DNA of 37,733 nucleotides from a virus (lineage: Duplodnaviria; Caudoviricetes). Each line of letters begins with the position of its first letter. Within the stretch, counting starts at the first letter, position 1. The stretch is from the IMG/VR virus record IMGVR_UViG_3300031963_000413, positions 1-37,733 of that record; one strand, written 5' to 3'. The notes under the pieces were generated by a model. It was not told the DNA's origin. It made no database searches and was given only the letters and a program-made list of their open reading frames with translations. Of the stretch, positions 1,794 to 17,832 are shown piece after piece. The position numbers and the translations under genes were made by a program.

Positions 1794-2552
1794 TTATCCT
1801 ACTAGGAATGGTGTTGGTTCTTCGTATGTATCGCGAAGTTTAATTTCAAGTTTTTCAACTTCGACCGAAGCCTCATCATAAATTTGTTGACCATTAATGA
1901 TCAATCCACCAGGAAGAACGTAGTTGCCATATTTCTTTAGGTTTGTTCCCCATTGTTGCTTAAACAATGCGGTTGTGTATTCTTTTAGCCAAAGATCGTT
2001 ATATGTTTTGCTATATGTTTCTTCATCAACGACTCTAAATCCCTCAAATGCCATATAATTGCCAACATTAAATTTACCCCAATCTGTAATGACTGTAAGT
2101 TTATTAACATTTTTATTGTATGTGTATGGCATTTCACCAGTAACAATCATATCCAACATCGCTAAATGTTCGCGCGCAATAACGTAGTATGTGTAAGATG
2201 AAGAAGTAAGGTTGTAAAAGTCGTTCAAGCGCAACTGATAGTTAATGTCAAACATATTAAAACCAGTTGAGGAAGTTGAACCTACTGTAGATCCAGTAAA
2301 AGCAAATACTCTAGAAACACCAGTAATGTTATCGCATAACTTAAGATAACCATTAAGAATATCAGCGTTGGTTAGTTTTTGAGCCAAATATACTCTTTCG
2401 GTGCCATCATAATGATAAATTTTAAAGTGCTGCAAAGCATCGTCGATACGATCGTCTAGTTGGTCGTCGTCGACGTTAATATCAACAACTGGGAAACCGA
2501 GTTTGCGGAGGCAGTAGTCTTTAAGTTGAGTTCGAGTGCTAGGTTGCGCCAT
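1794..2552 (-). CDS. gp13: Neck protein gp13
   Basis: LKDYCLRKLGFPVVDINVDDDQLDDRIDDALQ and WLKEYTTALFKQQWGTNLKKY...LPGG motifs; upstream GAGAGG Shine-Dalgarno. Confidence 0.95.
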   Translation of the reverse strand: MAQPSTRTQLKDYCLRKLGFPVVDINVDDDQLDDRIDDALQHFKIYHYDGTERVYLAQKLTNADILNGYLKLCDNITGVSRVFAFTGSTVGSTSSTGFNMFDINYQLRLNDFYNLTSSSYTYYVIAREHLAMLDMIVTGEMPYTYNKNVNKLTVITDWGKFNVGNYMAFEGFRVVDEETYSKTYNDLWLKEYTTALFKQQWGTNLKKYGNYVLPGGLIINGQQIYDEASVEVEKLEIKLRDTYEEPTPFLVG

Positions 2553-2575
2553 TTAGAACCTCTCTAATTATTGTA

Positions 2576-2583
2576 TATTTAGT
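2576..2583 (-). promoter_or_regulatory. Putative T4-type late promoter (ACTAAATA) upstream of gp13
   Basis: Variant of TATAAATA about 24 nt upstream of the gp13 start; the TAAATA core recurs at similar spacing before five other genes. Confidence 0.6.
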
Positions 2584-3329
2584 TACTCTACCAGTTGACC
2601 ATTTCTGGAATCATAAACCCTATTAGGGTCCATGTGCGCAAATTGCTCCCAGTTTGGTTCTCCAGGCTCTATCCTTTTACCCACAGTTTCTTCTCCAATG
2701 TGGTGAATTAGATTCTCGCCGTTGGGACCTTTAAGGGTTGCAGCATACATTTGATGAAAGAAATTTAAATACACCATCACCATACCCTCATTAACGTTGA
2801 ATTTCCAGTACTCTCTGAAGGAGTATTCGAGTATGGATTTACGGTACAGGGAAAAAATAATGGGAAATGTTTTGACGTTTTTAGAGTACCAGTAGTTGCC
2901 GAACGGTATATCACCTTCTTCAATTTTCGTTTCTTGTTCGTGGAAATACCATGGCTGGCGTTGCAATACAACAGAAGCCATTTTACAATCTGATTCTAGG
3001 CAATTGATCATATCATCAATTCGTATTCTGCGGTTTAAAAGCACATCGTCTTCTTGATGTAAGATATAGTCGTAATCTTGCTCCTTGAGCCAGTCAAAAA
3101 ACGCACTCCAATTTACAGAAAGACCTAAATTGGTCTCATTGAATGTAACATTAAACCCATAAACCTTAGAAACTAAATCAAATATGGCAGGATTACGGTT
3201 TCTTGGATAATCGTCTATGATTAATTTGTCAACTGTATGGTCACCATAATCCAACTTGTTCAAGGATTCTAGCGTCGGAATCAAATACTTGATCCGATTA
3301 GTTGAGAACATTACATGAAGAATCTTCAT
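2583..3329 (-). CDS. Glycosyltransferase, GT-A fold (GT2-like)
   Basis: N-terminal beta strand followed by STNR, then LIIDD, NLGLS and an acidic YILHQEDDV (DxD-like) motif. Confidence 0.72.
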   Translation of the reverse strand: MKILHVMFSTNRIKYLIPTLESLNKLDYGDHTVDKLIIDDYPRNRNPAIFDLVSKVYGFNVTFNETNLGLSVNWSAFFDWLKEQDYDYILHQEDDVLLNRRIRIDDMINCLESDCKMASVVLQRQPWYFHEQETKIEEGDIPFGNYWYSKNVKTFPIIFSLYRKSILEYSFREYWKFNVNEGMVMVYLNFFHQMYAATLKGPNGENLIHHIGEETVGKRIEPGEPNWEQFAHMDPNRVYDSRNGQLVE

Positions 3330-3886
3330 TAGTATTCGGTATTAAAGAAAAAGGTTTGGAACAATCTACCGTTTTTTGAATTACTTCCGAAATAGTCCAG
3401 GGAAGCGTGATAAAGATTGCCTCTGTACATCACAATACGATTGTATTTGTTAGCAACATAATCAGTTTGTTCCCATTTAGTATAATCATATCCATCATAT
3501 TGCGGGCTATTATTATCTTGGCGTTCGTATTCTTTTGTTTCTTTATAGCGATACAACGCAGTTCCTGAAGATAATGGCGCATCTGGGGTTAGATAACAAA
3601 CTGCCGCCCAAGTATTAAAACTGTCAGCATGAATCCAAGTGCGATCTTTCGCAGTACAAATTTGAAATGCGCCAGTATATCCAGAGTCTTCGAACCAATG
3701 AGTAATCTTACCACCAGCATTCTGAATAATCCATTGCATGGATGCTTTTAAATCATCAGGAAGCCATGGTTTTGTTCTGAGACCAGGGTAATTGCCTGAA
3801 ACTTCAAATGGCTGTGAAAGCGCAAATGCTCGAACGTCATCAGGATTTTGATAAAAATCGTCAGTAATAATCAATGATGTTTTCAT
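3329..3886 (-). CDS. 2OG-Fe(II) oxygenase-like protein (DUF6445-like)
   Basis: DDFYQNPD..R, YPGLRT, WIHAD (HxD), LYHAS (distal His) and GRLFQTFF (Arg) fit the facial-triad pattern. Confidence 0.75.
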   Translation of the reverse strand: MKTSLIITDDFYQNPDDVRAFALSQPFEVSGNYPGLRTKPWLPDDLKASMQWIIQNAGGKITHWFEDSGYTGAFQICTAKDRTWIHADSFNTWAAVCYLTPDAPLSSGTALYRYKETKEYERQDNNSPQYDGYDYTKWEQTDYVANKYNRIVMYRGNLYHASLDYFGSNSKNGRLFQTFFFNTEY

Positions 3887-3893
3887 ACTTTAC

Positions 3894-4646
3894 CTAATAA
3901 TACATAAATCGACCAGATGTCCCATCCCAACCAGATACAATCCAGTCGGTTTCAATCACATCGGCTTCAAACGGTCTTGTAAAATAATATGACAATGTTT
4001 CTATGTCATAATGCGACATCTTAGAATTATTTAGAAGATTGACAGTGGCTTCATTAATATCAATAAACTTATCCAACTGAGAACTGCCAAACCCATATAA
4101 CACAGTACAATACTGATGCAATCGGTTATTATTTTGACAATTTCTACGATCTACAAATTGATATTTCCAACTGTCATTCCATTCAAAATTTAATGGGCGC
4201 TTGAAAAATATTTTATTTTTATTTTTCTCTGTGAATAGAGAATTGTTTAAATTGAAATAAAAATACCGACCAGTTGCCTTTAAGATATAATCATATTGTT
4301 GTAATTGTTTTTTGTTATGTTTAAGATATGTGTTGAGTAGCAAAGACTCGCAAAGACTTTTGTTTGGGTGAGAGTTAACTATCTCATGGGCTTCCACTGA
4401 TAATTGTTTTAGTTGGACAAATTCTACATTCCTAAGATGACTCAAGGTTATGATATACTCATAAACATCTTCGGACGAATCTACAATTACAATTTTTGTA
4501 TTTGGTAAACTATTTTGTAAAGAATTAACTGTAAATATAGTTTGCCTTAATCTTTCTTCTGCGTCAAATTTAGATCGTGTTGGGCTGTAAGTAAAAGTTC
4601 CTGGTCTTGGGCTGATTGACGATCCAACAACTACAAGGTTATTCAT
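3894..4646 (-). CDS. Hypothetical protein, probable glycosyltransferase-like
   Basis: IVIVDSS and YDYILKATGRY motifs resemble nucleotide-sugar transferase-like proteins; translationally coupled within the GT cluster. Confidence 0.45.
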   Translation of the reverse strand: MNNLVVVGSSISPRPGTFTYSPTRSKFDAEERLRQTIFTVNSLQNSLPNTKIVIVDSSEDVYEYIITLSHLRNVEFVQLKQLSVEAHEIVNSHPNKSLCESLLLNTYLKHNKKQLQQYDYILKATGRYFYFNLNNSLFTEKNKNKIFFKRPLNFEWNDSWKYQFVDRRNCQNNNRLHQYCTVLYGFGSSQLDKFIDINEATVNLLNNSKMSHYDIETLSYYFTRPFEADVIETDWIVSGWDGTSGRFMYY

Positions 4647-5634
4647 AAAATTGATTCTTGATTACTTTATCTAAATACTGCTTATGCTTTAAATGCACCA
4701 TTTCATCAGAAAAATTTAATCCCCATCCACGACAATCAGATGATTCAATTTTGTCTATTGAATTCATAGCAGTTAATAATGATTTAAAATCTCTAACTCT
4801 GTATCCTGTTTTGCCTTCCACCACAGTTTCAGTAAATCCGCCCCAATCAGTTGTGATTGATGGTGTGCCAGATAGATTTGCTTCGATGACCATGTTACCG
4901 AATGGCTCAACATAATGCGTTAATCCGATTAAACACTTTGCTTTACGCATCAACTGTTTTCGTTGTTCAGCATCAGCAATGCCAAACATCGTAACATGAT
5001 CTGGAGTTTTGTTGTATCCTAAACTCTGCAACGATCCAGGACCAGCAATAATAAGTTTTTTGCCTAGCCTTTCTGTTGCTTGAATTGCAAGATGAACACC
5101 CTTTTCTTCAACGACTCTACCAAAATACAAAAAATAATCATCTTTAAAATCACAATATTCAAACTCACTAACTGTAAATGGATTTGGAATTACTGCATCG
5201 AACCAAGAAGGATTCATGAGCATCCCACGCTCACCATAAAAGAAATGCATGTTAGCATAAGAAGTAAACACGCGATATGGCGCAAATATTCCATTGGCTC
5301 TATATCCAATAGATGGTTCAACTGGTTTGCAATTTGGATTCATTTCGCAAGCAAGTTGATTATCAACTCCAAAAAAACAAGCAATTATATCTCCATCGCT
5401 TGCTCTTTTACGAATTTCTTCACCAGCAATTTCATTGAAACGTTTTATTTCTGTTGGTGTTGTTGGAATATCAACATGTTCACACTCAACCTGTGCGCCA
5501 GGAATTCCATAGTGAATCATATGGAAATGCTGAGAAAGATGCTGGATATATTTGTATGTGTGAACAGCAAAAGGATCAACGCGATTTGTTAATCCTGTAG
5601 GTGTGCGAGGATTCCCCAATACATGAACTTTCAT
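4639..5634 (-). CDS. Glycosyltransferase family 4 (GT-B, Glycos_transf_1)
   Basis: YFLYFGRVVEEKGVHLAI and the EPFGNMVIEANLSGTP (E-x7-E) signature, then TTDWGGFTETV. Confidence 0.9.
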   Translation of the reverse strand: MKVHVLGNPRTPTGLTNRVDPFAVHTYKYIQHLSQHFHMIHYGIPGAQVECEHVDIPTTPTEIKRFNEIAGEEIRKRASDGDIIACFFGVDNQLACEMNPNCKPVEPSIGYRANGIFAPYRVFTSYANMHFFYGERGMLMNPSWFDAVIPNPFTVSEFEYCDFKDDYFLYFGRVVEEKGVHLAIQATERLGKKLIIAGPGSLQSLGYNKTPDHVTMFGIADAEQRKQLMRKAKCLIGLTHYVEPFGNMVIEANLSGTPSITTDWGGFTETVVEGKTGYRVRDFKSLLTAMNSIDKIESSDCRGWGLNFSDEMVHLKHKQYLDKVIKNQFYE

Positions 5635-5660: not shown

Positions 5661-8600
5661 TTATTTAGCATCCTTCATTGTCAAGGTTCCCCAGTACGTT
5701 GATCCACCATCATAGGTGATAAACGTCCACAAGTCACGTGCATTTGATGCTACTGTAGCAGGCGGTATAGCACCACCAGCCCAATAAACAGTGTTAGCAA
5801 ATGTTGGGTATCTTCCACCAGTTCCATCTTGCAATAATAGTAACGTAAACAATTGACCTGTTCCTGATGAAGGAGCATTGGTAAATGTAAATGCTACGTT
5901 TGCAGTCATAACATGACGGAAATAATTTGAGTCTGTAAGATTTACAGTATTTGCGCCATTCGTATTAGTATTAGCAACAATAAAATCTTTGACTGCTTTT
6001 AGTGTTGCGCCTTCGTTTGGTCCTGTTGGACCTTGTGGTCCCTGTGGTCCCTGCGGTCCTTGAGGACCAACAACACCCTGCGGACCTTGAGGACCTGTAA
6101 CACCCTGCGGACCTTGTGGACCAGTGTCACCTTTATCACCAGTGCGCACAAATGTCATCGTTACATTTGCGCCATTAGGGAATGATGTTACACCAGTTGT
6201 GTGGTCAACAGGAATAAAGAAGTAATCTGCAACATGATCATGCAGACCAGTTATATTAAAGAATGCAAAATTTAAAACGTTTGCGGTATTCGCAATTTTA
6301 AATGTTCCTTTAATACTTGATGTAGAATCGTCAATCGTTTGCAAATAATTAAACACATTTGCGCCGTTGTCGTCAATAAAATCAAGTATCATCGTATTTG
6401 CTGTTGAGAAATCAGCACTGTCAAATTTAACGTTTGCGGCACCTGGATCAGTGTTTGCAGTATTTGTTAAGTACACAAACTCAAAGGTTGCGCCACCGAA
6501 TTCACCAGTATCACCCTTCAATCCTTGTGGACCCTGTGGACCCTGTGGACCTGTGTTTCCTTGTGGACCCTGTGGTCCAGTTGAACCATTAGAACCTGCT
6601 GGACCTTGTGGTCCTTGAGGTCCAGTCACTGAGTCACCAGTTGATCCGATAGGACCTTGTGGACCCTGTGGACCCTGTGGTCCTTGTGGACCAACAGGAC
6701 CAACATCACTGATGTTGATTGTTCCAGCCATTGACGAGTGGAACTGGCAAACATAATACAACACGCTTGGTGCATCATATGGAACAGCAAATGTAATTGT
6801 ACCAACAGCAACACCACCATTTGTTATTCCATTGGTGTATATGTTTCCAGAACTATATGCCCCAGAAACTGTTTGAATCCAAAATGGATGACCAGAAGCA
6901 TTAACACTAAATGTATAGGTAAATCCACGCAACAGATTCAATGTCGGATTATTTGAACCATCAATTACATAAGCACTTGCGCCGCTGTTTGTGACTGTAT
7001 AATTTCTTGCGCCAGTAGCACCCTGTGGACCCTGCGGTCCTGTTGATCCTTGCGAACCTTGTGGACCCTGAGGACCCTGAGGACCAGCAACAGTTGATGC
7101 ATCACCCTGTGGACCTTGTGGACCTTGTGGTCCAGCATTACCAGTTAATCCTTGTGGACCCTGAGGACCCTGAGGACCCTGCGGACCTGTTGAACCTTGT
7201 GCGCCTTGAGGACCCTGAGGACCTGTTGATCCAGCAGCGCCTTGTGAACCCTGAGGACCTTGTGGACCTTGCGGTCCAGCATCACCTGTTAATCCTTGAA
7301 TACCTTGAGAACCTTGTGGACCTTGCGGACCTGTCACGGAGTTTCCTTGCGGACCTTGAGGACCCTGAGGACCAGCAACAGTTGACGCATCACCCTGTGG
7401 ACCTTGTGGACCTTGTGGACCCTGAGGACCAGTATTACCTGTTAATCCTTGAATACCTTGTGCGCCTTGCGGACCTTGTGGACCTTGAGGACCTTGAGGA
7501 CCAGGAACAGTTGATGCATCACCTTGCGCGCCTTGAGGACCTTGTGGACCCTGCGGACCTTGTGGACCAACAACACCTTGTGGACCTTGAGGACCTGTAT
7601 TTCCAGCAGGACCTTGAGGACCTTGTGGACCTGGGTCACCAGTGCTGCCTTGAGCACCCTGCGGACCTTGTGGACCAAGTGGACCCTGCGGACCTGCTAC
7701 ACCCTGCGGACCTTGTGGACCCTGAGGACCAACATCGCCTTGCGGACCTTGCGGACCTTGTGGACCTATCGCTCCTTGAGGACCCTGCGGACCCTGTGGA
7801 CCAGTTGTTCCTTGAGGACCCTGCGGACCTTGAGGACCAACGATAGGACCAGCGTCAATCCAAGATGAAGTTCCAGAACTCCACACATACAAATGACCAT
7901 CAGCGGTAACAATATATGCATCGCCATCCGATGCACCGCCAGGAAGATTTCCCACAGTTAATACTGTGCCAAGAACTGTGATGCCAGTTCCTGTTGCTCC
8001 AGATGGACCAGATGGACCAGCAACACCCTGTGGACCTTGAGGACCTTGCGGACCTGCTAATGATGGACCTGTTGGACCTAAAGCACCTTGCGGACCTTGA
8101 GGACCTTGTGGACCTAGATCGCCCTGATTACCTTGCGCGCCAATTAATCCTTGTGGACCCTGTGGACCCTGTGGACCCTGTGGACCTGCTACGCCCTGCG
8201 GACCTTGTGCTCCAGTAACGCCTTGTGGACCTTGAGGACCTTGCGGACCAGTTTCGCCTTGATCGCCTTTCGGACCCTGAGGACCAATACTTCCTTGAGG
8301 ACCTTGTGGACCTTGCGGACCTGTAACAGAATTTCCTTGTGGACCTTGTGGACCCTGTGGTCCAGGAACAGTTGATGCATCACCTTGTGCGCCTTGAGGA
8401 CCTTGCGGACCAAGTGGACCTTGAGGACCAACAGCACCTTGTGGACCTTGAGCACCAGTTGAACCTTGCGCGCCTTGAGGACCTTGCGGACCAAGTGGAC
8501 CTTGAGGACCAACAGCACCCTGAGGACCTTGTGGACCAGCATTACCTTGCGCACCTTGTGGACCTTGAGGACCAGTTGAACCTTGTGGACCCTGCGGACC

Positions 8601-8918
8601 TGCTAATCCTTGAATGCCTTGTGATCCAGTTACACCTTGAGGACCTTGAGGACCAGTTGAACCTTGTGGACCCTGCGGACCAGTAACTGATGCGCCTTGC
8701 GGACCAGAAGGACCTTGAGGACCAGCGACAGTTGAATTAGCACCACTTGGACCACTAGGACCTTGAGGACCTAATACGCCTTGCGGACCAGAAGGACCTT
8801 GCGGACCTTGAGGACCTGTCGCGCCACTGGGACCTTGAGGACCTGTAGAACCATCTGGACCCTGAGGACCTTGTGGACCTTGTGGTCCTGCAGCGTATGT
8901 AATGCCAATTGTCGTCAT
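5661..8918 (-). CDS. Collagen-like (GPQ)n fibre protein with inserted globular domains and C-terminal fibre domain
   Basis: Long G-X-Y runs dominated by GPQ; three globular inserts including a cupredoxin-like domain; C-terminal ~115 aa homologous to the C-terminus of 16279..17832. Confidence 0.9.
5662..5669 (-). promoter_or_regulatory. Putative late promoter (GCTAAATA) upstream of the GT4 cluster
   Basis: TAAATA core about 28 nt upstream of the GT4 start, overlapping the end of the collagen gene. Confidence 0.5.
7021..8889 (-). repeat. Degenerate 9-bp tandem repeat encoding Gly-Pro-Gln triplets (main collagen block)
   Basis: Plus-strand units ggaccttgt/ggaccctga/ggaccttgc, interrupted once by a globular insert (~7845-7995). 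Shorter blocks lie at ~6510-6700 and ~6020-6140. Confidence 0.95.
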
Positions 8919-9313: not shown

Positions 9314-10273
9314 CTAGGTTCTGTCAGGCACCTCCCAATCCACCACAACTCCTGGGTTTGGTGTGATTGCTCTGGAGATAGCGCGGTTTTCTAATTTTCT
9401 ATTTATATAATCAACCCCTGTAATCTTGCGATAATGTTCAAGTTGATCTTCAGATAAAGAGTAAATGTAATCAATAATCTCTTTCTTAGAACGATTATGA
9501 TTCATTTCCAGTTTTTGCGGATCTGCAACTGGGTTGATAGTTTGTTTGGTATCATGGCTGCCAGAACGGACGTAATGATACACGCGGATTCTTCTTTGGT
9601 GGTAAATATGGTATCCAGCCAAAATCGTGCTAATAACGAATATTTGCTCTTCGCCTTCAAAGAAGATTTTGGTATTATATCCCACATCTTTAATCCAACT
9701 TACTGGCATAAAGAAGTTGCCAGCGCAAATATGAATAGATGGAGTTACATGCTCAGTTGCAGAAACCCAAGGACCATGAGCGTGGAGACGGAGATCTTTA
9801 TCGAATTGAAAATATCCTAACTTAACAGTGATGTCATCTGTTAGGGTGTGTTTAATAATTCTGTTTTCTTCAAGATCAAAGTTTTTTGTGCCAGCAGTTA
9901 AAACAACTTTATCTGTATTGGCGATTTTTCGAGCATCATTGTAATCTAGAATTAACTGGTGATCCCAATCTTTGTCGAACAACATATGAGAATCAATTTG
10001 ATATTGAAACTCTTCGTCGTAGATTTGCATTGAATTGATACTTCGCGCCCAGACTACTCCGTCAGAGAACTCAGGATCAATGCGTTTATATCTAATTCTA
10101 GGATGTTTAACTAGATCAGGGTTTGTAGTTTGTAAACTGTTCTCAAGTTTAGTTTGCTCAAACACACCATATGTGATTTGGTTTCTACCTGATTCAGTAT
10201 CAAGTAGACTCTGTATAGTTGGTGCTAATAACTTGTCTCTATAAGAACATATGTTTACAAATATTTTAGCCAT
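9314..10273 (-). CDS. GT60-like polypeptide/hydroxyproline GlcNAc transferase (Skp1 Gnt1-like, Pfam 'GlcNAc')
   Basis: IFVNICSYRD, GVFEQ, GVVWARS, QIDSHMLFDKDWD and FFEGEE motifs match the I-F-x-x-I-x-SYRD / DSH / F.GEE signatures of this family. Confidence 0.8.
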   Translation of the reverse strand: MAKIFVNICSYRDKLLAPTIQSLLDTESGRNQITYGVFEQTKLENSLQTTNPDLVKHPRIRYKRIDPEFSDGVVWARSINSMQIYDEEFQYQIDSHMLFDKDWDHQLILDYNDARKIANTDKVVLTAGTKNFDLEENRIIKHTLTDDITVKLGYFQFDKDLRLHAHGPWVSATEHVTPSIHICAGNFFMPVSWIKDVGYNTKIFFEGEEQIFVISTILAGYHIYHQRRIRVYHYVRSGSHDTKQTINPVADPQKLEMNHNRSKKEIIDYIYSLSEDQLEHYRKITGVDYINRKLENRAISRAITPNPGVVVDWEVPDRT

Positions 10274-11013
10274 TATTCTACTTTCTTATTGAGTGTATAC
10301 TTTTTACGAATCATATAATACTTTCTGTAAAAATTAGATTCGTGGAACCATTTTAATATTTTGTTATAATCGTCTTGCTCTTGAGTAACAGCACCATAAC
10401 TCGCAACTATTGTTTTATCAGTAATGAATGGAATTATGTGCAAAATAGGATCACCTGCTTTGATTTCTAATTCGCATTCTCGTTTAGGTGAGCAAATAAA
10501 ATTAACTGTTGTGAAGCCTTTGTAATCTACAACTCCTGGATACACATAAAGATCATCTAAGAACGTAGAGTGATAAAACGCTGGCATCACAAGTGCTGAA
10601 ATATTACCATTACCATGAATTTTCCATGCTCCAGGAAAATTTAAAATTGATGGCTGAACGCCACCTTGAGGCGCAAAGATTCCATCAACAATGCCTATGT
10701 CCATATATTGTGGCTGACCCAGAGGGGTTTGACGTTTTTTAGAATCTTCTCCAGCGTTTCCAACTACACCAACAAATCCTGCTTTGTTTGCTTTGATATG
10801 AAAATTGCTCCAAGCAGGAATAATATATCCTATTCTAGCATAGTCATGCATACCAGGACATTTAGGGAAATTGTAATTATCAAACTTTTTTTCTTGATGT
10901 TCTTTAAATGGTTTTAAATCTTTAGCAAGAATAGGCGGATAATGCGGATAAACTACTTTAGATTTGTCCACAAACTCAAGATCTGGTTTATCTTTTTTTA
11001 AAAAATTAAACAT
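10273..11013 (-). CDS. Hypothetical protein, paralog of 11016..11750 (possible DUF6065-like)
   Basis: KCPGMHDYARIGYIIP, PGVVDY and IKAGDPILHIIPF align with the neighbour's RCLPLLDAMSLGFTIP, SAMVDT and IPAGTPLVTAIPI. Confidence 0.6.
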   Translation of the reverse strand: MFNFLKKDKPDLEFVDKSKVVYPHYPPILAKDLKPFKEHQEKKFDNYNFPKCPGMHDYARIGYIIPAWSNFHIKANKAGFVGVVGNAGEDSKKRQTPLGQPQYMDIGIVDGIFAPQGGVQPSILNFPGAWKIHGNGNISALVMPAFYHSTFLDDLYVYPGVVDYKGFTTVNFICSPKRECELEIKAGDPILHIIPFITDKTIVASYGAVTQEQDDYNKILKWFHESNFYRKYYMIRKKYTLNKKVE

Positions 11014-11015
11014 AA

Positions 11016-11750
11016 TTATTTCTTCTCTCTCAATTCATAAGTATAGTAGTGCGTTCTATTATTTTGAATTCTGCCTATTCTTTCAACAGTTTTAAACTCA
11101 CTTTGCGTAATTGGTCGAACTACAGGCTTCTTCTCAAACGAATTTCGTTTGATTGGTATAGCAGTAACTAATGGTGTGCCTGCAGGAATGTGAACATCAG
11201 CATCAAATATATTTAACAACGCAGGAAAATTAACTTCTTTAGGATATTTGTCCGTATCAACCATTGCGCTTAAACATGTAAACGGTTGATCAAAATGATT
11301 TAGTGGGCTAATGAATAGCGTTGACCAACCTGGTGCTGTTTTAATGATCCATCGATTTAAAAATTTTAGCGGATTACCATGATTAGGTCTTGCTGCGTTT
11401 GGACCACCAACTTGATCAGCAGTATGAAACTCGCAAACTTTAAGACCAGGAGGATTAATCACATCTATTTGACTATTATTATGATTACTACGAATGTGGA
11501 GATCGGCACAAATAGGAATAGTAAATCCTAGCGACATCGCATCTAATAACGGTAAACAACGTTTTGCTGACATTGCTTTGTTACCAAATGAGTCACGATC
11601 ATCACCAAACGTTGGCTCAAGGTTCTTAAACCAATCAGGAAGATGTTTAACAGCAGCTCTTGGCTCAGGGATAATACCAACCAAATCAGGATGACAATAA
11701 AACTCTATGATTGGATTATCCCAAAACTTGAGTTTTTTAAATGTTACCAT
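11016..11750 (-). CDS. Hypothetical protein (possible DUF6065-like beta-fold family)
   Basis: PDWFKNL, KRCLPLLDAMSLGF, WIIKTAPGWSTLF and IPAGTPLVTAIPIKR; overlaps the upstream oxygenase gene by 7 bp. Confidence 0.6.
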   Translation of the reverse strand: MVTFKKLKFWDNPIIEFYCHPDLVGIIPEPRAAVKHLPDWFKNLEPTFGDDRDSFGNKAMSAKRCLPLLDAMSLGFTIPICADLHIRSNHNNSQIDVINPPGLKVCEFHTADQVGGPNAARPNHGNPLKFLNRWIIKTAPGWSTLFISPLNHFDQPFTCLSAMVDTDKYPKEVNFPALLNIFDADVHIPAGTPLVTAIPIKRNSFEKKPVVRPITQSEFKTVERIGRIQNNRTHYYTYELREKK

Positions 11751-12346
11751 GTATTTTTACCCATCACCCAAGCAACCAACGATTTTCGAATACCAGAAGT
11801 CACTGGTCGAACACGATGTGGCATTTTGGAATCAAAGAAAATCACATCACCAAGTTCTGGTTTAGCGAGAAATGGTTCATCAACACGACCATTTAATACG
11901 CACTCAAACTCACCGCCTTCATATTTGCTTGGGTCAGTAAGAACAATAGTTGCGCTGATTTTTCTTTCAAATGGAGTTGACAAATTTGATGCATCAACAT
12001 GCCAATCATAATGTTGTTTGTCTTTAGACTTGTAAACAGTGTATTGAAAATTTTCAAAACCATCAACATCATACATAAAATGATCATAATTGACGGCAGA
12101 AACTAAACTAGAAAATTTTTGATAAAGCCAATCTGAAGTTTGGTCATGCATAATCCACATGACTTCACTATCACGAGTTTTTTTGTTGACTTGACCCTTA
12201 CCTGTCCCAGCGCCGACGGCACCTTTTTGAAATTTTTGCAGGTCTTCTAGGTCTAGGATCTTTTCTATTTCGTCTTTGGTAAATGCTTTTGTAGCAACAC
12301 AAAAACGATTCAAAACACGAGCATAACGTTGCACTGGATACGGCAT
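11744..12346 (-). CDS. 2OG-Fe(II) oxygenase, PKHD/prolyl-4-hydroxylase-like
   Basis: YDWHVD (HxD), RKIS, YEGGEF and PHRVRPVTSGIRKSLVAW (His...RxS); upstream GAGG Shine-Dalgarno. Confidence 0.9.
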   Translation of the reverse strand: MPYPVQRYARVLNRFCVATKAFTKDEIEKILDLEDLQKFQKGAVGAGTGKGQVNKKTRDSEVMWIMHDQTSDWLYQKFSSLVSAVNYDHFMYDVDGFENFQYTVYKSKDKQHYDWHVDASNLSTPFERKISATIVLTDPSKYEGGEFECVLNGRVDEPFLAKPELGDVIFFDSKMPHRVRPVTSGIRKSLVAWVMGKNTW

Positions 12347-12426: not shown

Positions 12427-14436
12427 TTACTCAAGTTTGATGACAATTTGTCCACCAGGAGGAACAGCAACAGCAAGATTATCAATTGGAAATGAATCAT
12501 ATGGAACAACTGTTTCTGGAATAGTTGGAGCCACAGTTGAGATTGGTCCACCTGGGAAGTATACGCCAAGAATAGTTTGCGCTTGCCCAACATTTCCTGG
12601 TGTATATGCTGTAATTGGGCGACCTGTTTCTGGTTGATTAGCAATTGGGTATGCTATGTTGTAGTTGGTGCTATAGTTGACGCTATATGCAGTAACTGGT
12701 CTAGATGCTTCTGGTTGATTTGCTACTGGATATGCAATATTATAATTGGTATTATAATTGATCGTGAATGCAGTCGCTGGCTGATTAGCAATCGGCTGGT
12801 TAGCAACTGGATAAGCAACATTATAATTTGTGTTATACAAAATACTATATGCTGTTGCTGGTTGGTTAGCAATAGGATACGCAATATTGTAGTTTGTGTT
12901 GTAAAGAATACTGTACGCAGTCGCAGGTTGGTTAGCAATTGGCTGATTAGCAACAGGATACACAGTATTATAATTTGTAGAATATGCAGTAACTGGTCTA
13001 GATGCTTCTGGTTGATTTGCTACTGGATATGCGATGTTGTAATTAGTTGAGTACGCAGTAACTGGGCGTGACGCCTCAGGTTGACTTGCTACTGGATACG
13101 CAACATTGTAGTTAGTATTATAGAGAATCGTGTACGCAGTAACAGGTCGACCAGTTTCTGGTTGGTTAGCAATTGGATATGCAACGTTGTAATTTGTGTT
13201 GTAGAGAATAGTATATGCTGTCGCAGGTTGGGTTGCGATAGGATATGCTACGTTGTAATTCGTTGAGTATGTAATCGAATATGCAGTTGCAGGTTGGTTG
13301 GCTATAGGATATGCAACGTTGTAGTTTGTATTGTAATTTGCGTTGTTACCACCAGCAGGAGTGCAAACAAAATTTGCTGTATAATACACCTCAAATTCTG
13401 GATAGAAGTTATAATCGATTGAATAATATGTGAATGGTGTGGGGCATGAACCACTTCCATTATAATTTCCTGATGTATTGAATGCTCCATAAAAATTATC
13501 AGAATAATATTCATTCGCATACCAGTTAAAACTTGTCGCTGGATTGTAACTTGCGATTGGTTGGTTGGCTACTGGATATGCAATATTATAATTCGTTGAG
13601 TATGCAGTAATCGGTCTTCCAGTTTCAGGTTGGTTGGCAACTGGATAAACAGTATTGTAATTTGTAGAATATGCTGTAACAGGTCTAGATGCCTCGGGTC
13701 TATTCGCAACAGGATATGCAGTATTATAGTTAGTTGAATATGTGATGCTATAAGCAGTCGCTGGTCTTGATGCTTCAGGTCTATTTGCTACTGGATATGC
13801 AACGTTGTAGTTCGTGTTATAGAGAATCGTGTAAGCAGTGATCGGCTGATTAGCAATAGGATACGCAACGTTATAGTTGGTATTATACAGAATAGTGTAT
13901 GCAGTAATCGGCTGATTGGCAATAGGATACGCGACGTTATAGTTGGTGTTATAATTTGTGCTGTAAGCAGTTGCAGGACGCGATGCTTCTGGTCTGTTTG
14001 CTACTGGGTATGCAACATTATAGTTTGTAGCCCAAGCAGTAATAGGTCTAGATGCTTCTGGCTGTGTTGCAATCGGATATGCAATATTATAGTTGGTGCT
14101 GTAGTTTGTACTGTATGCAGTTGCAGGACGAGCTGCTTCAGGTTGTGATGCGATCGGATATACTGTATTGTAATTTGTGTTGTACAGAATACTGTACGCC
14201 GTCGCTGGTTGATTAGCAATTGGCTGATTTGCGATCGGATAAACAGTGTTATAATTTGTTGCATACGTGATTGCGTATGCTGCAGCCACTGGATCATTAC
14301 CCGTTCCAGCGCGCCCAGATATGGTTCCCTTGAATTGACCATATGGAATCGTAAGGTTTCCAGGGGCATTGAACGTGGTAACTGCTCTGGCTGCACCTAA
14401 AATCCAAGATTTTGATAAAATTAATGGCTTTGACAT
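12427..14436 (-). CDS. Tyr/Asn/Pro repeat protein A: predicted hairpin fibre/adhesin (10+10 repeats around a central tip)
   Basis: Short N domain, 10 repeats, ~72-aa unique aromatic-rich segment, 10 repeats, short C domain. Paralog of 14477..16273. The function is inferred. Confidence 0.75.
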   Translation of the reverse strand: MSKPLILSKSWILGAARAVTTFNAPGNLTIPYGQFKGTISGRAGTGNDPVAAAYAITYATNYNTVYPIANQPIANQPATAYSILYNTNYNTVYPIASQPEAARPATAYSTNYSTNYNIAYPIATQPEASRPITAWATNYNVAYPVANRPEASRPATAYSTNYNTNYNVAYPIANQPITAYTILYNTNYNVAYPIANQPITAYTILYNTNYNVAYPVANRPEASRPATAYSITYSTNYNTAYPVANRPEASRPVTAYSTNYNTVYPVANQPETGRPITAYSTNYNIAYPVANQPIASYNPATSFNWYANEYYSDNFYGAFNTSGNYNGSGSCPTPFTYYSIDYNFYPEFEVYYTANFVCTPAGGNNANYNTNYNVAYPIANQPATAYSITYSTNYNVAYPIATQPATAYTILYNTNYNVAYPIANQPETGRPVTAYTILYNTNYNVAYPVASQPEASRPVTAYSTNYNIAYPVANQPEASRPVTAYSTNYNTVYPVANQPIANQPATAYSILYNTNYNIAYPIANQPATAYSILYNTNYNVAYPVANQPIANQPATAFTINYNTNYNIAYPVANQPEASRPVTAYSVNYSTNYNIAYPIANQPETGRPITAYTPGNVGQAQTILGVYFPGGPISTVAPTIPETVVPYDSFPIDNLAVAVPPGGQIVIKLE

Positions 14437-14476: not shown

Positions 14477-16273
14477 TCACTCAATCTTTACGATGATTTG
14501 TCCGCCAGAAGGAACCTGTACTGGGTAATTTTCATTATCCTTGAAGTCCCAATAATTAACAACAGTTTCAGGCACAGTTGGAGCAAGCGAGGCAACATCA
14601 CCGCCTGGGAAATACACACCTAGCACATTTGTTGGTGTTCCAGGCGCACCAGGAATATAAGATGTGAGCGGTTGGTTAGCAATTGGCTGATTTTGTATAG
14701 GATATACGACATTATAATTTGTGTTGTAGTTTGTTGACCATGTGGTAATTGGTTGGTTGCCAACAGGATAGACAATATTGTAATTTGTATTATAGTTTAC
14801 TGAGTATGCTGTAGCAGGCTGATTGGCGATAGGTCGATTTCCTTCCACTGCAACTACGTTATAATTCGTTACCCATGCTGTTGCTGGTTGGTTTGCTATT
14901 GGCTGATTAACTACTGGATATACAACGTTGTAGTTGGTGTTGTAGTTTGTGGTGTATGCAGTTGCTGGCTGATTAGCAATAGGTTGTGCAGCAATCGGAT
15001 ATGAAATGTTGTAATTTATGTTATAATTCGTAACCCATGCATTTGCAGGCTGATTAGCAATAGGTTGACTGCCGATAGGATATGAAATGTTATAATTAGT
15101 AGTATAATTCGTTACCCATGCAGTAATTGGCTGATTGGCAAGATTTTGTTGACTGATTGGATAAGCAATATTGTAGTTGGTGTTATAGTTTGTTTGCCAA
15201 GTTGTTGCTGGTTGGTTTGCGATTGGCTGATTAACTACTGGATATACAACGTTGTAGTTGGTGTTGTAGTTTGTTTGTAATGCAGAATAAAAAATTTCAA
15301 TATAACCCGATGTTGGATCTCCTGGTAATGGGCTTCCAAATTCGTCTCTAATTGCATTAGCGTACATACTAACAGGATCTGGCAAATTTGTATTTGTGCC
15401 TAATGAATCCCATAAATTTGTGCCATAATTTCCCGATGTTAACTGTATGGGATATTGCGAGAATTGGTAATCAGCCCCGCCTACCCAATATGATGCAGCC
15501 CAATCTACATTACCGATTGGCTGATTTCCGACAGGATATGCGACGTTGTAATTAGTATTATAATTAGTTACCCATGCTGTTTCTGGCTGATTTGCTATTG
15601 GCTGATTAACTACTGGATACACAACATTATAAAATGTTGCATAATTCGTTACCCATGCTGTTGCTGGTTGATTAGCAATAGGTCTGTTTCCAGTGCCATA
15701 GACAATATTGTAAAAAGTGACGTAATTAGTTGAATATGCAGTTGCTGGTTGATTACCAATAGGTCTGTTACCTTCAACTCCGACAGTGTTATAGAAGGTG
15801 ACATAGTTTGTCACCCAAGCAATTGCTGGTTGATTGTCTATTGGACGATTTTCAATAGGATATACGACATTATAATTCGTGTTGTAATTAGTTGAATATG
15901 CAGTTGCTGGTTGATTTCCGATTGGATAAACAATATTATAATTTGTACTATAATTTGTAACCCAAGTTGTTGCAGGCTGATTCGCAACAGGTTGATTAAC
16001 TACTGGATATACTACATTGTAGTTTGTAATCCAAGCAGTAGCAGGTCTATTGGCAATAGGTTGAGTCGCGACTGGATACGCAACATTATAATTTGTATTG
16101 TAATTTACTGTATAAACTGCAGTAGGAACGTTACCAGAACCACCGCGACCAGAAACAGTTGCAATGTGTCTTCCGTAATCTATGAAAAGATTAGTTGGTG
16201 AATTGAAGGTCTGCGTACCGCGCGAAGGACCTACGATCCAGGATTTTTCTAATGTATCTGGTCTACGTGCCAT
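14477..16273 (-). CDS. Tyr/Asn/Pro repeat protein B: predicted hairpin fibre/adhesin (8+8 repeats around a central tip)
   Basis: Same architecture as 12427..14436; shared termini KSWI.G...TFN.P.NL.I.YG...SGR.G.GN and LGVYFPGG...PETVV...VP.GGQI..K.E. Confidence 0.75.
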   Translation of the reverse strand: MARRPDTLEKSWIVGPSRGTQTFNSPTNLFIDYGRHIATVSGRGGSGNVPTAVYTVNYNTNYNVAYPVATQPIANRPATAWITNYNVVYPVVNQPVANQPATTWVTNYSTNYNIVYPIGNQPATAYSTNYNTNYNVVYPIENRPIDNQPAIAWVTNYVTFYNTVGVEGNRPIGNQPATAYSTNYVTFYNIVYGTGNRPIANQPATAWVTNYATFYNVVYPVVNQPIANQPETAWVTNYNTNYNVAYPVGNQPIGNVDWAASYWVGGADYQFSQYPIQLTSGNYGTNLWDSLGTNTNLPDPVSMYANAIRDEFGSPLPGDPTSGYIEIFYSALQTNYNTNYNVVYPVVNQPIANQPATTWQTNYNTNYNIAYPISQQNLANQPITAWVTNYTTNYNISYPIGSQPIANQPANAWVTNYNINYNISYPIAAQPIANQPATAYTTNYNTNYNVVYPVVNQPIANQPATAWVTNYNVVAVEGNRPIANQPATAYSVNYNTNYNIVYPVGNQPITTWSTNYNTNYNVVYPIQNQPIANQPLTSYIPGAPGTPTNVLGVYFPGGDVASLAPTVPETVVNYWDFKDNENYPVQVPSGGQIIVKIE

Positions 16274-16278
16274 GAATA

Positions 16279-17832
16279 TTATCTAGCGTCTTTAACAGCA
16301 AGTGTGCCAATATAGGTCGCGCCACCGTCATATGTTGTAAATGTCCAGACATCTGTTCTTCCAGCAGCGGAAGTTGTTGCTGGAGGCACTTGCCCACCAG
16401 CCCAATAAACAGTGTTACTCCAAGAAACAGTTTTACCACCCCCACTACCTTGGATAACCACCAATGAAAACGTCATAGCAGTTCCTGATGGTGGTGCGTT
16501 GGTGAAGTTAAACGTTGTACTACCAGACAAAGTATATCTGAACCAGTTAGAATTAGCAAGGTTTGCTGACACAGTTCCTGAAACAGTGCTAGTGTCTAAG
16601 AAATCCTTGACAGACTTCATTGTTCCTGTGATGTTACCAGAAGTATTGATTTCACCAGTTACAGTTAAGTTTGCAGCAGTTAAATTACCAGTGTTTAGAG
16701 GTGCTGGTAGTCCATTTGCTAGGAAATTCCAAGTATCCGTAATATCATTCCAAAACAATTCAGCGTTACCAGAAACAGCAGAACGCTGCACTCGAATTGT
16801 TCCGTTGCCGTCTGTTGTTGCACCGAAGCGTAGGATATACTTGTCATCAGCAGTTGTTGCTGGTGCTTGGATTGGATCAATTACAGTCAATGTTGTGATT
16901 GTAGCATTGATCAAATTAGCATTCGCAATATTAGCAAGGCTAACTACTGCTAGATTATTTGTTTGAGTTCTATTTGAAACAACGAGGTTCCCTGATGTTG
17001 TGTTTTGTGTAACAGCAAGATTTCCAGTTGATGTATTTTGAGTTACAGAAAGATTACCAGAGAACGTATTTTGAGCAACAAAAGCATTACCAGTAAATGT
17101 GTTCCAAGTTACACCGAGATTAGAATAAAGATTTGCGTTGCCTGTAACTTCTAGTCTTGATCCAACGTTAACATTTCCTGTGACATTGGCACTAGCAAAA
17201 AAGAATGTATTTGGCGTCACTTCAAACGTTGCAGCGCCATGAGTATTTGCTACATTAACATGGTTGCCAAAGAAGTATGTGTTTGGCGATACGTTAAAGC
17301 GAGCATCAGCAGTTGTATTTGAAACTCTTACTTTCTGCGATGAAATCGTTGTATTTGATTCAACGTTAAACGTGCCACCTGCTTGCGTATTTGAGATTAC
17401 GACATTTGATGCCGTGATTAACGTATTTGAAGAAACGTTGAATGTGCCGCCAACAGTTGCATTTGAAATGCTTACGTTTGTTGCATAGATAACTGTGTTT
17501 GTATTAATCTGATACAAGTCAGTAGCACCCATGCGGCGATAGTGAATATCACCAGCATCAACATATAGGTGATTGGTTGAGTTGTCTAATTCGACGTTGA
17601 ATACTGTTAGAGTTCCGTCGATATTTGTGTCATCAGCGACATCAAGAATAACACCGCCAGTAGTATTTGCGATTCGAAGATAACCCTCGTTGATCGTCAC
17701 ATTTCCGCGTGGCTTTACAAAGTTGCCGCGAGTAATTTCGTTCACATCATTTGCAACAAGATTGTCATTAATACGCCATTGATTAAACGTATTTGATGTG
17801 CTAATAATTGCAACGTTAATTGTATTTGCCAT
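16279..17832 (-). CDS. Tail fibre-like protein (beta-repeat shaft, conserved C-terminal domain)
   Basis: N-terminal NTFNQWR motif typical of T4-like fibre proteins; repeats such as GNLSVTQNTSTGNLAVTQNTTSGNL; C-terminus homologous to that of the collagen fibre. Confidence 0.7.
   Translation of the reverse strand: MANTINVAIISTSNTFNQWRINDNLVANDVNEITRGNFVKPRGNVTINEGYLRIANTTGGVILDVADDTNIDGTLTVFNVELDNSTNHLYVDAGDIHYRRMGATDLYQINTNTVIYATNVSISNATVGGTFNVSSNTLITASNVVISNTQAGGTFNVESNTTISSQKVRVSNTTADARFNVSPNTYFFGNHVNVANTHGAATFEVTPNTFFFASANVTGNVNVGSRLEVTGNANLYSNLGVTWNTFTGNAFVAQNTFSGNLSVTQNTSTGNLAVTQNTTSGNLVVSNRTQTNNLAVVSLANIANANLINATITTLTVIDPIQAPATTADDKYILRFGATTDGNGTIRVQRSAVSGNAELFWNDITDTWNFLANGLPAPLNTGNLTAANLTVTGEINTSGNITGTMKSVKDFLDTSTVSGTVSANLANSNWFRYTLSGSTTFNFTNAPPSGTAMTFSLVVIQGSGGGKTVSWSNTVYWAGGQVPPATTSAAGRTDVWTFTTYDGGATYIGTLAVKDAR

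Follow-up and report, generated by a model that had tools for sequence, protein, structure and literature searches.

The product of gene B (14477..16273, minus strand; 598 aa) is probably a fibre or adhesin whose stalk pairs with itself, a hairpin in which one chain supplies a shared base, two zipped arms and a swappable, probably host-binding tip. Its open reading frame lies in the window, by which we mean the whole 37,733-nt stretch of viral DNA that was analysed, and it has no family in Pfam, PHROGs or NCBIfam; the same is true of its paralogue, gene A (12427..14436, minus strand; 669 aa, with 10+10 units and a two-Cys tip). We demonstrated a mirrored order of repeats, a residue-level pairing code, matched insertions and deletions, exchange of tips, and a conserved gene context, the last of which makes it probable that B is located in the virion and binds the host. 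What appears to be new here, judging by the sequences, is an undescribed construction rule in the class of phage receptor-binding fibres and adhesins, and no description of the family was found in the literature searched (listings, without subscription papers or bioRxiv supplements).

Family conservation and a model of a homologue delimit the two halves of the base domain of B, the N-terminal half at residues 1–48 (16130..16273, with one invariant Trp) and the C-terminal half at residues 536–598 (14480..14668). Enclosed between them, again on the minus strand, are a first arm of eight repeat units (15503..16129), a non-repetitive central tip without Cys (residues 258–333; 15275..15502) that lies within an exchanged cassette, and a second arm of eight units (14669..15274). 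Each unit consists of a 4-aa linker ending in an aromatic residue, one or two 4-aa modules ending in Tyr, a 5-aa turn, and one or two 5-aa modules ending in Pro, and is written here as its pair of module counts. A preliminary description had proposed these 8+8 arms, and our parse bore them out with coordinates differing by no more than 12 nt. The unit strings also agreed: arm 1 reads (2,2)(1,2)(2,1) followed by five (2,2), and arm 2 reads five (2,2) followed by (1,2)(2,1)(2,2), which in both the unit parse and the pair list is the reverse of arm 1 with the two counts of each unit swapped. An independent parser that uses only the spacing of aromatic residues and prolines recovered this swapped-reverse rule at 15/15 comparable counts, compared with 10/14 for a tandem register and 10/14 for reversal without the swap. 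Contigs of two sequencing runs that were not flagged as source tile most of B with 0–1 differences, none of them spanning the gene.

Taken alone, the mirror of B is weak evidence, because its sole informative block, (1,2)(2,1), is its own swapped reverse and could in principle be produced by a direct copy; by unit order, the exact chance is p = 1/56, against 1/7560 for A. Four relatives (L003, L007, L063 and L065) have the first five units in common with B, which indicates that the pattern of B was inherited. It had been claimed that the two paralogues obey the rule independently, and this is right insofar as A and B belong to different supported clades of a base tree of 37 rows and have undergone different expansions, but their grammar is shared by descent. 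The accompanying claim, that the arms are under selection for antiparallel pairing, is well supported through the family, with little added by B alone. On its own sequence, B would thus count as modest evidence for pairing, and it is the family that carries the case.

Searches for the family yielded 43 proteins, 85 loci with some overlap and 123 cluster representatives, at least one of the latter (P0142) being unrelated. The metagenome scan used B alone as the query and covered 37 of 64 parts, and four of the loci (L001, L002, L062 and L076) show a 100% match to the whole of B and do not count as independent of it. The first collection comprised 76 distinct proteins, and in the 73 of full length 517 of 555 counts agreed in the mirror register, as opposed to 255/477 in the tandem register and 286/547 after reversal without the swap. 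Many of the misses were parser offsets or non-canonical modules, and the mirror of L003 B is complete when read by eye. Protein A agreed at 19/19 counts. For 22 cleanly parsed proteins, picked afterwards because they were in register and drawn from related homologues whose counts are not independent events, the mirror register held at 264/266 counts, compared with 83/184 to 147/228 when the arms were shifted by 1–2 units. A later check under the same parser rules covered 18 new proteins, which are relatives of the first set and represent no new lineages; the 10 with comparable units were mirrored at 106 of 108 counts. We listed 14 mirrored patterns of at least four units, several of them with unequal numbers of (1,2) and (2,1) that are nonetheless mirrored exactly, and direct copying cannot produce such patterns. 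The parser was unable to read a subfamily with 8-residue repeats and other stalk chemistries, and no counts come from them. Searches elsewhere gave no usable feature match in the ESM Atlas (structure rows at TM 0.30 or less), chance matches only by sequence in the PDB, and, with a short homologue as the query, no match among GenBank phages, where no cultured phage carries a member.

The facing modules are also matched at the level of residues. Covariation was assessed over 430 facing pairs with shuffles inside protein and slot, and is by its nature blind to whether pairing is within or between chains. Position 2 of the Tyr-ended module covaries with position 1 of the facing Pro-ended module (z 19), as do the third positions of the two modules with each other (z 18), so that the covariation of modules, which the preliminary description had allowed might vanish with more homologues, persisted once these were added (z = 18–19). 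Ile-Leu modules stood opposite Glu-x-Ser-Arg-Pro in 42/43 cases (13 proteins; 18/18 in later loci), Ile-Thr modules opposite Glu-x-Gly-Arg-Pro in 26/28 (11 proteins; 29/33 in later loci), and Ile-Asn modules opposite a Glu-led module in 69/75, whereas Thr-Asn modules faced a Glu-led module in only 1/277 (1/113 in later loci). Turn-turn covariation was weak family-wide (best z 3.5), as was that between linkers. An extra module pair in L003 and L063 is present in both orientations.

Within B itself, all of the correspondences pointed out earlier were found again. The three Phe modules (TFYN) of arm-1 units 5–7 lie opposite the only Pro-type modules of arm 2, three in number, that have no Asn in position 3, the deviant turns of arm-1 units 5 and 6 (TVGV and IVYG) opposite the two Ser-bearing turns (ISYP), and the Glu-led module of unit 5 (EGNRP) opposite the single Ile-bearing second module (INYN). 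The Phe modules adjoin each other and need not represent three independent events. The Glu-led module of arm 2 (EGNRP) was correctly named as an exception, as the pair list shows, and a second one had been missed, the deviant turn of arm-2 unit 6, which faces an ordinary turn. The last module of arm 1 (IGNVD), taken previously for a degenerate repeat, forms the first part of the imported tip cassette. The placement of Phe opposite residues other than Asn is consistent in B and L005 (7/7) but fails at 3 positions in the nearest relatives of B, with Phe opposite Asn at three places in L003 and L063 (by eye), and would best be described as a tendency with exceptions.

Changes in stalk length provide a further line of evidence. 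In six cases, close relatives differ by paired indels in both arms (23+22, 50+49, 18+18, 22+23, 18+18 and 8+8 residues), including L080 and L078, which are 98% identical (23+22), A and L063 (50+49), and L003 and L063 B (18+18); the one-residue offsets are predicted by the swap. As evidence to the contrary, differences confined to one arm were seen in four pairs (L058/L059, P0163/P0008, P0029/P0037 and L075/P0004), and arms are uneven in P0001, P0160 and P0161 (3+8 or 3+7 units) and in P0007 (5+2). Collapsed assembly of near-identical repeats would yield one-armed variants and cannot yield matched indel pairs, though the variants may also be real phages. Forms in which arm 1 is joined to arm 2 without a tip (L066:858-1724, L074:1913-2728, P0046 and P0056) are probably collapsed assemblies, or else possibly real recombinants.

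The same base also carries other stalk chemistries, among them a 10/11-residue pair, whose 10-residue member lies in arm 1 and 11-residue member in arm 2 of L038–L041 and P0054, and the reverse order in P0096, P0129, P0136 and P0144. An 8-residue self-similar repeat forms the inner stalk of L006:734-2260, P0002, P0003, P0012, P0014, P0020 and P0026, and indels in this subfamily are also paired (8+8). P0151 (780 aa) combines an N-terminal base half and a stalk-like region with a C-terminal Hint/AXH-like domain that replaces the usual base half. Another unusual gene, L017:847-4581, is followed by DUF6065 and 2OG oxygenase genes and encodes a 1245-aa glycine-rich protein with an N-terminus that resembles the mirror base (hhalign probability 86%); with its two poly-Gly regions, it resembles a polyglycine-type out-and-back chain, a possible link to glycine-rich fibres.

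At the DNA level, we found 11 short pairs of inverted repeats, none of them in mirror register. Synonymous identity between mirror partners was 0.53 in B and 0.43 in A, with a background of 0.44–0.48, and the two copies of the odd block in B, which share 71% of their amino acids, had a synonymous identity of 0.50 against a background of 0.46–0.48, showing that these copies are not recent. A recent duplication or a DNA inverted repeat as the cause of the mirror was ruled out by the background-level synonymous identity and the repeat scan.

The tips evolve separately from the bases. Four pairs of proteins have a base identity of 0.98–1.00 and a tip identity of 0.16–0.24. The tip of B is 68–70% identical to those of L006, P0002 and P0003, proteins with stalks built mostly from a different repeat type, and 14% identical to the tip of its nearest base relative. 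The exchanged cassette (15232–15551) starts in the last unit of arm 1 and has 79% nucleotide identity to L006, L064 and L069. Exactly two Cys were present in 40 of 69 tips, and none in that of B. Judging by these identities, lineages exchange their tips. Two crossovers, one in the repeats on each side of the tip, would move the tip and inner units together and could change both arms at once, and unbalanced recombination products would be purged.

According to Pfam and PHROG annotation, the genes of the window, all encoded on the minus strand, belong to the baseplate, fibre and neck region of a T4-like myophage. At least 92% of sampled window words occur in 20 public runs from 16 studies, mostly freshwater metagenomes and 9 of them possibly the source; no RNA run was among the listed runs with window words, and raw reads from two runs gave 0 and 10 recovered reads, too few to judge. 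Genes B and A sit between a tail-fibre gene directly upstream of B (16279..17832; PHROG tail fibre) and a cassette that comprises a 2OG-Fe(II) oxygenase directly downstream of the mirror genes (11744..12346; Pfam), two DUF6065/phrog_7084 genes (10273..11750; Pfam and PHROG) and a GlcNAc-type glycosyltransferase (PF11397; 9314..10273; Pfam), all on the minus strand. Enzymes of the PF11397 family act on hydroxyproline. The upstream tail-fibre protein ends in a conserved domain of approximately 115 aa (PF26209 in homologues, by precomputed annotation), and a gene with this domain precedes the first mirror gene in 26 of the 32 distinct loci that leave room for it upstream, being missing in the other 6. 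The oxygenase comes directly after the last mirror gene in 32/34 loci, and a glycosyltransferase is near the mirror genes in 25 of 31 loci with room; these associations persist in phages whose other genes differ. The protein of 16279..17832 is a possible attachment partner of B, and the oxygenase a possible candidate modifier of the stalk.

Several other features of these neighbourhoods were noted. The fibres at 16279–17832 and 5661–8918, one of them collagen-like, share the same C-terminal conserved domain, so that this one phage window holds two fibres with the conserved end domain and two mirror genes. More glycosyltransferases (PF00534 and PF00535) and a DUF6445 gene occupy 1794–5634, flanked by the collagen fibre and the neck genes. 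In L038–L041, L058 and L059, the oxygenase is followed by a sulfotransferase-like gene, and no GlcNAc-type transferase was observed.

Structure prediction was informative for the base. The AlphaFold2 model of B from its single sequence was unusable (pLDDT 37), with local strands at low confidence, while a model of a 299-aa homologue, based on 95 rows, had an all-beta base with pLDDT values of 94–98 for residues 11–50 and 84–98 for residues 231–299, and 36–66 in the arms and tip. The homologue model has its first strand at residue 20, with no N-terminal helix of at least four residues and no helical bundle. Alignments of the base model to solved beta-sandwiches span both halves but are weak (best Z 4.8); they include trimeric TNF/C1q domains and the fibre protein gp24 of Pam3, the latter a weak match (Z 3.5, rmsd 3.5, 88 residues, 26% identity) that aligns across both sides of the gp24 insertion. 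Foldseek searches of the PDB and BFVD with the base model gave no E under 0.001, the weak BFVD rows being rich in "glycine-rich domain" proteins; gp37, gp38 and ALK were absent among the 50 best fold matches listed, and when 95 members were compared with Pfam at E up to 1, no glycine-rich family was among the matches. The homologue model makes it likely that both termini fold into a single shared base domain that is weakly TNF-like, and the fold matches suggest kinship to TNF-like and glycine-rich fibres as a lead. When the short homologue L038 was predicted as a complex with its upstream fibre-end domain in three copies, the score was 0.61, with one control at 0.67, which speaks neither for nor against an association. 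We infer the contacts, geometry and length of the stalk from the sequences, the stalk being at low confidence in both models.

Other explanations of the mirror can be weighed against these results. If the units folded locally, as short hairpins or a solenoid, the arms would be just similar in length; the (2,2) units are self-complementary and the low-confidence single-sequence model does contain local strands, but in the same 22 proteins that mirror at 264/266, local hairpins agreed at 149/272 counts around turns and 85/228 around linkers, and we consider this very improbable. Duplication and gene conversion, acting on self-complementary blocks, might instead have left the mirror as a by-product, without any selection for pairing at long range. 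The odd block of B, self-complementary and present once per arm at 71% amino-acid identity, is what such a process could leave, and one-armed variants do occur. Yet the patterns with unequal (1,2) and (2,1) are mirrored exactly, the six indel pairs match to the residue, residue classes covary in the mirror register only, and there is neither an inverted DNA repeat nor a recent copy. The mirror-register code, the paired indels and the unequal mirrored patterns largely refute this explanation, to which we give hardly any credence.

A different arrangement of the strands is harder to set aside, as all sequence results would fit equally well if the arms paired antiparallel and in the same register between the chains of a trimer, forming a six-stranded needle like the tip of T4 gp37 on a trimerizing TNF-like base, and thus a fibre of its own. 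The weak base matches to trimeric TNF/C1q domains and to gp24 of Pam3, a trimer (PMC9608196), are in its favour, as is the same nested plan of base, stem and tip in gp37 (PMC6957217). We nevertheless regard it as unlikely: His residues that could form metal sites are absent from the arms, which offer only about 3% Phe+Trp for a core, the homologue model indicates that B is missing the N-terminal helical docking domain of gp24, and the gene lies behind a fibre gene like that of gp38, which is monomeric (PMC6851490). The stalk could also be real and the protein no adhesin, serving as a virion decoration, spacer or decoy with a tip that varies for other reasons, such as escape from host recognition. 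The absence of a known family for the tip of B, a host-binding role that rests on context, and a conserved oxygenase/glycosyltransferase cassette that could indicate a modified surface filament are all compatible with this, but swapping of tips between lineages on identical bases is the known pattern of host-range modules, and the gene is linked to tail-fibre genes in phages otherwise unlike; we judge such a role distinctly unlikely.

In the self-paired adhesin that we favour, the chain of B would run out and back, with its termini forming a small beta-sandwich base, its arms zipped antiparallel into a thin stalk, and its tip at the distal end. Each four-residue Tyr-ended module would lie against a five-residue Pro-ended module, turn on turn and linker on linker, with each aromatic ring diagonal to a proline and the position-3 side chains in contact, Asn with Asn, and Leu, Thr or Phe with Ser, Gly or Ala. 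Irregularity in the order of units would set one register in an otherwise slippable repeat, and with approximately 205 residues in each arm we estimate a rod roughly 60–70 nm long if extended. By analogy with gp38, which caps gp37, the base probably docks at the end of the neighbouring trimeric fibre, and the adjoining oxygenase and glycosyltransferase may modify the stalk.

A bolder reading, for which we would give slightly less than an even chance, is that the family constitutes a protein "reverse complement": a two-stranded rod of one chain, tens of nanometres long, in which four or more complementary module pairs are read as base pairs would be, the order of units determining the register and their number the length. 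It would evolve like an RNA stem, through compensatory changes, paired indels and nested cassette exchange, would have arisen anew on the same base in several repeat chemistries, and would cap a fibre and be hydroxylated and glycosylated by the neighbouring enzymes. Most of the receptor-binding fibres known from phages are trimers or else short folded adhesins, and the family suggests another fibre design, a chain that zips on itself via a readable module code. Since the sequence predicts all facing pairs, the idea is directly testable. If true, it would provide a new repeat fold on which current predictors fail, a protein instance of RNA-like compensatory evolution, natural rods of tunable length that take a plug-in tip, and, for uncultured phages of fresh water, a list of tips that bind hosts.

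For comparison with known systems, we drew on PMC9608196, PMC6957217, PMC6851490 and PMC12143355. The tail fibre gp24 of the cyanophage Pam3 (PDB 7YPX) is a trimer with a TNF-like and a glycine-rich domain (PMC9608196). B would resemble it in having a small TNF-like sandwich, extended out-and-back segments along the fibre axis and a hypervariable tip. In gp24, short Gly-rich loops, six in all, make up a lattice, and there is a helical docking domain at the N terminus as well as a chaperone, whereas B has a single 490-residue insertion with arms of 2% Gly, a stalk of Asn, Thr, Tyr and Pro, and a separate 76-residue tip. In the needle of the T4 long tail fibre gp37 (D10–D11), the receptor-binding tip is inserted in a two-armed stem (PMC6957217), and the nested plan of B is similar, with a base from both ends of the region, a two-armed stem whose pairing is predicted, and an inserted tip. 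The stem arms of the gp37 needle are non-repetitive and 50 residues long, in a trimer with seven His-bound irons (PMC6957217); B, in contrast, has 205-residue repeat arms of variable length with a module code, and His is absent from the arms of both A and B. No sequence or fold match of gp37 to the family was among the matches listed.

The adhesin gp38 of T-even phages, as in the S16 gp37–gp38 assembly, docks by three Trp on a helical bundle, combines a beta-helix with a polyglycine sandwich, and is encoded by a separate small gene whose variable distal segments determine host range (PMC6851490). B is likewise encoded by a separate gene directly behind a fibre gene (26/32 loci) and has an exchangeable, hypervariable distal part, but it has one invariant Trp, no helical bundle and a long stalk. 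The stalk-and-knob of bovine ultralong CDR H3, in which a two-stranded stalk presents a variable and often disulfide-bonded knob, is comparable as an analogy and not a homology; that stalk is short and non-repetitive, and the tip of B, without Cys, is unlike the disulfide-bonded knob. Failing the defining features of these systems, namely His sites, a Gly lattice and a Trp bundle, the B family would by analogy work like the gp37 needle or the antibody stalk, and sits in the genome like gp38.
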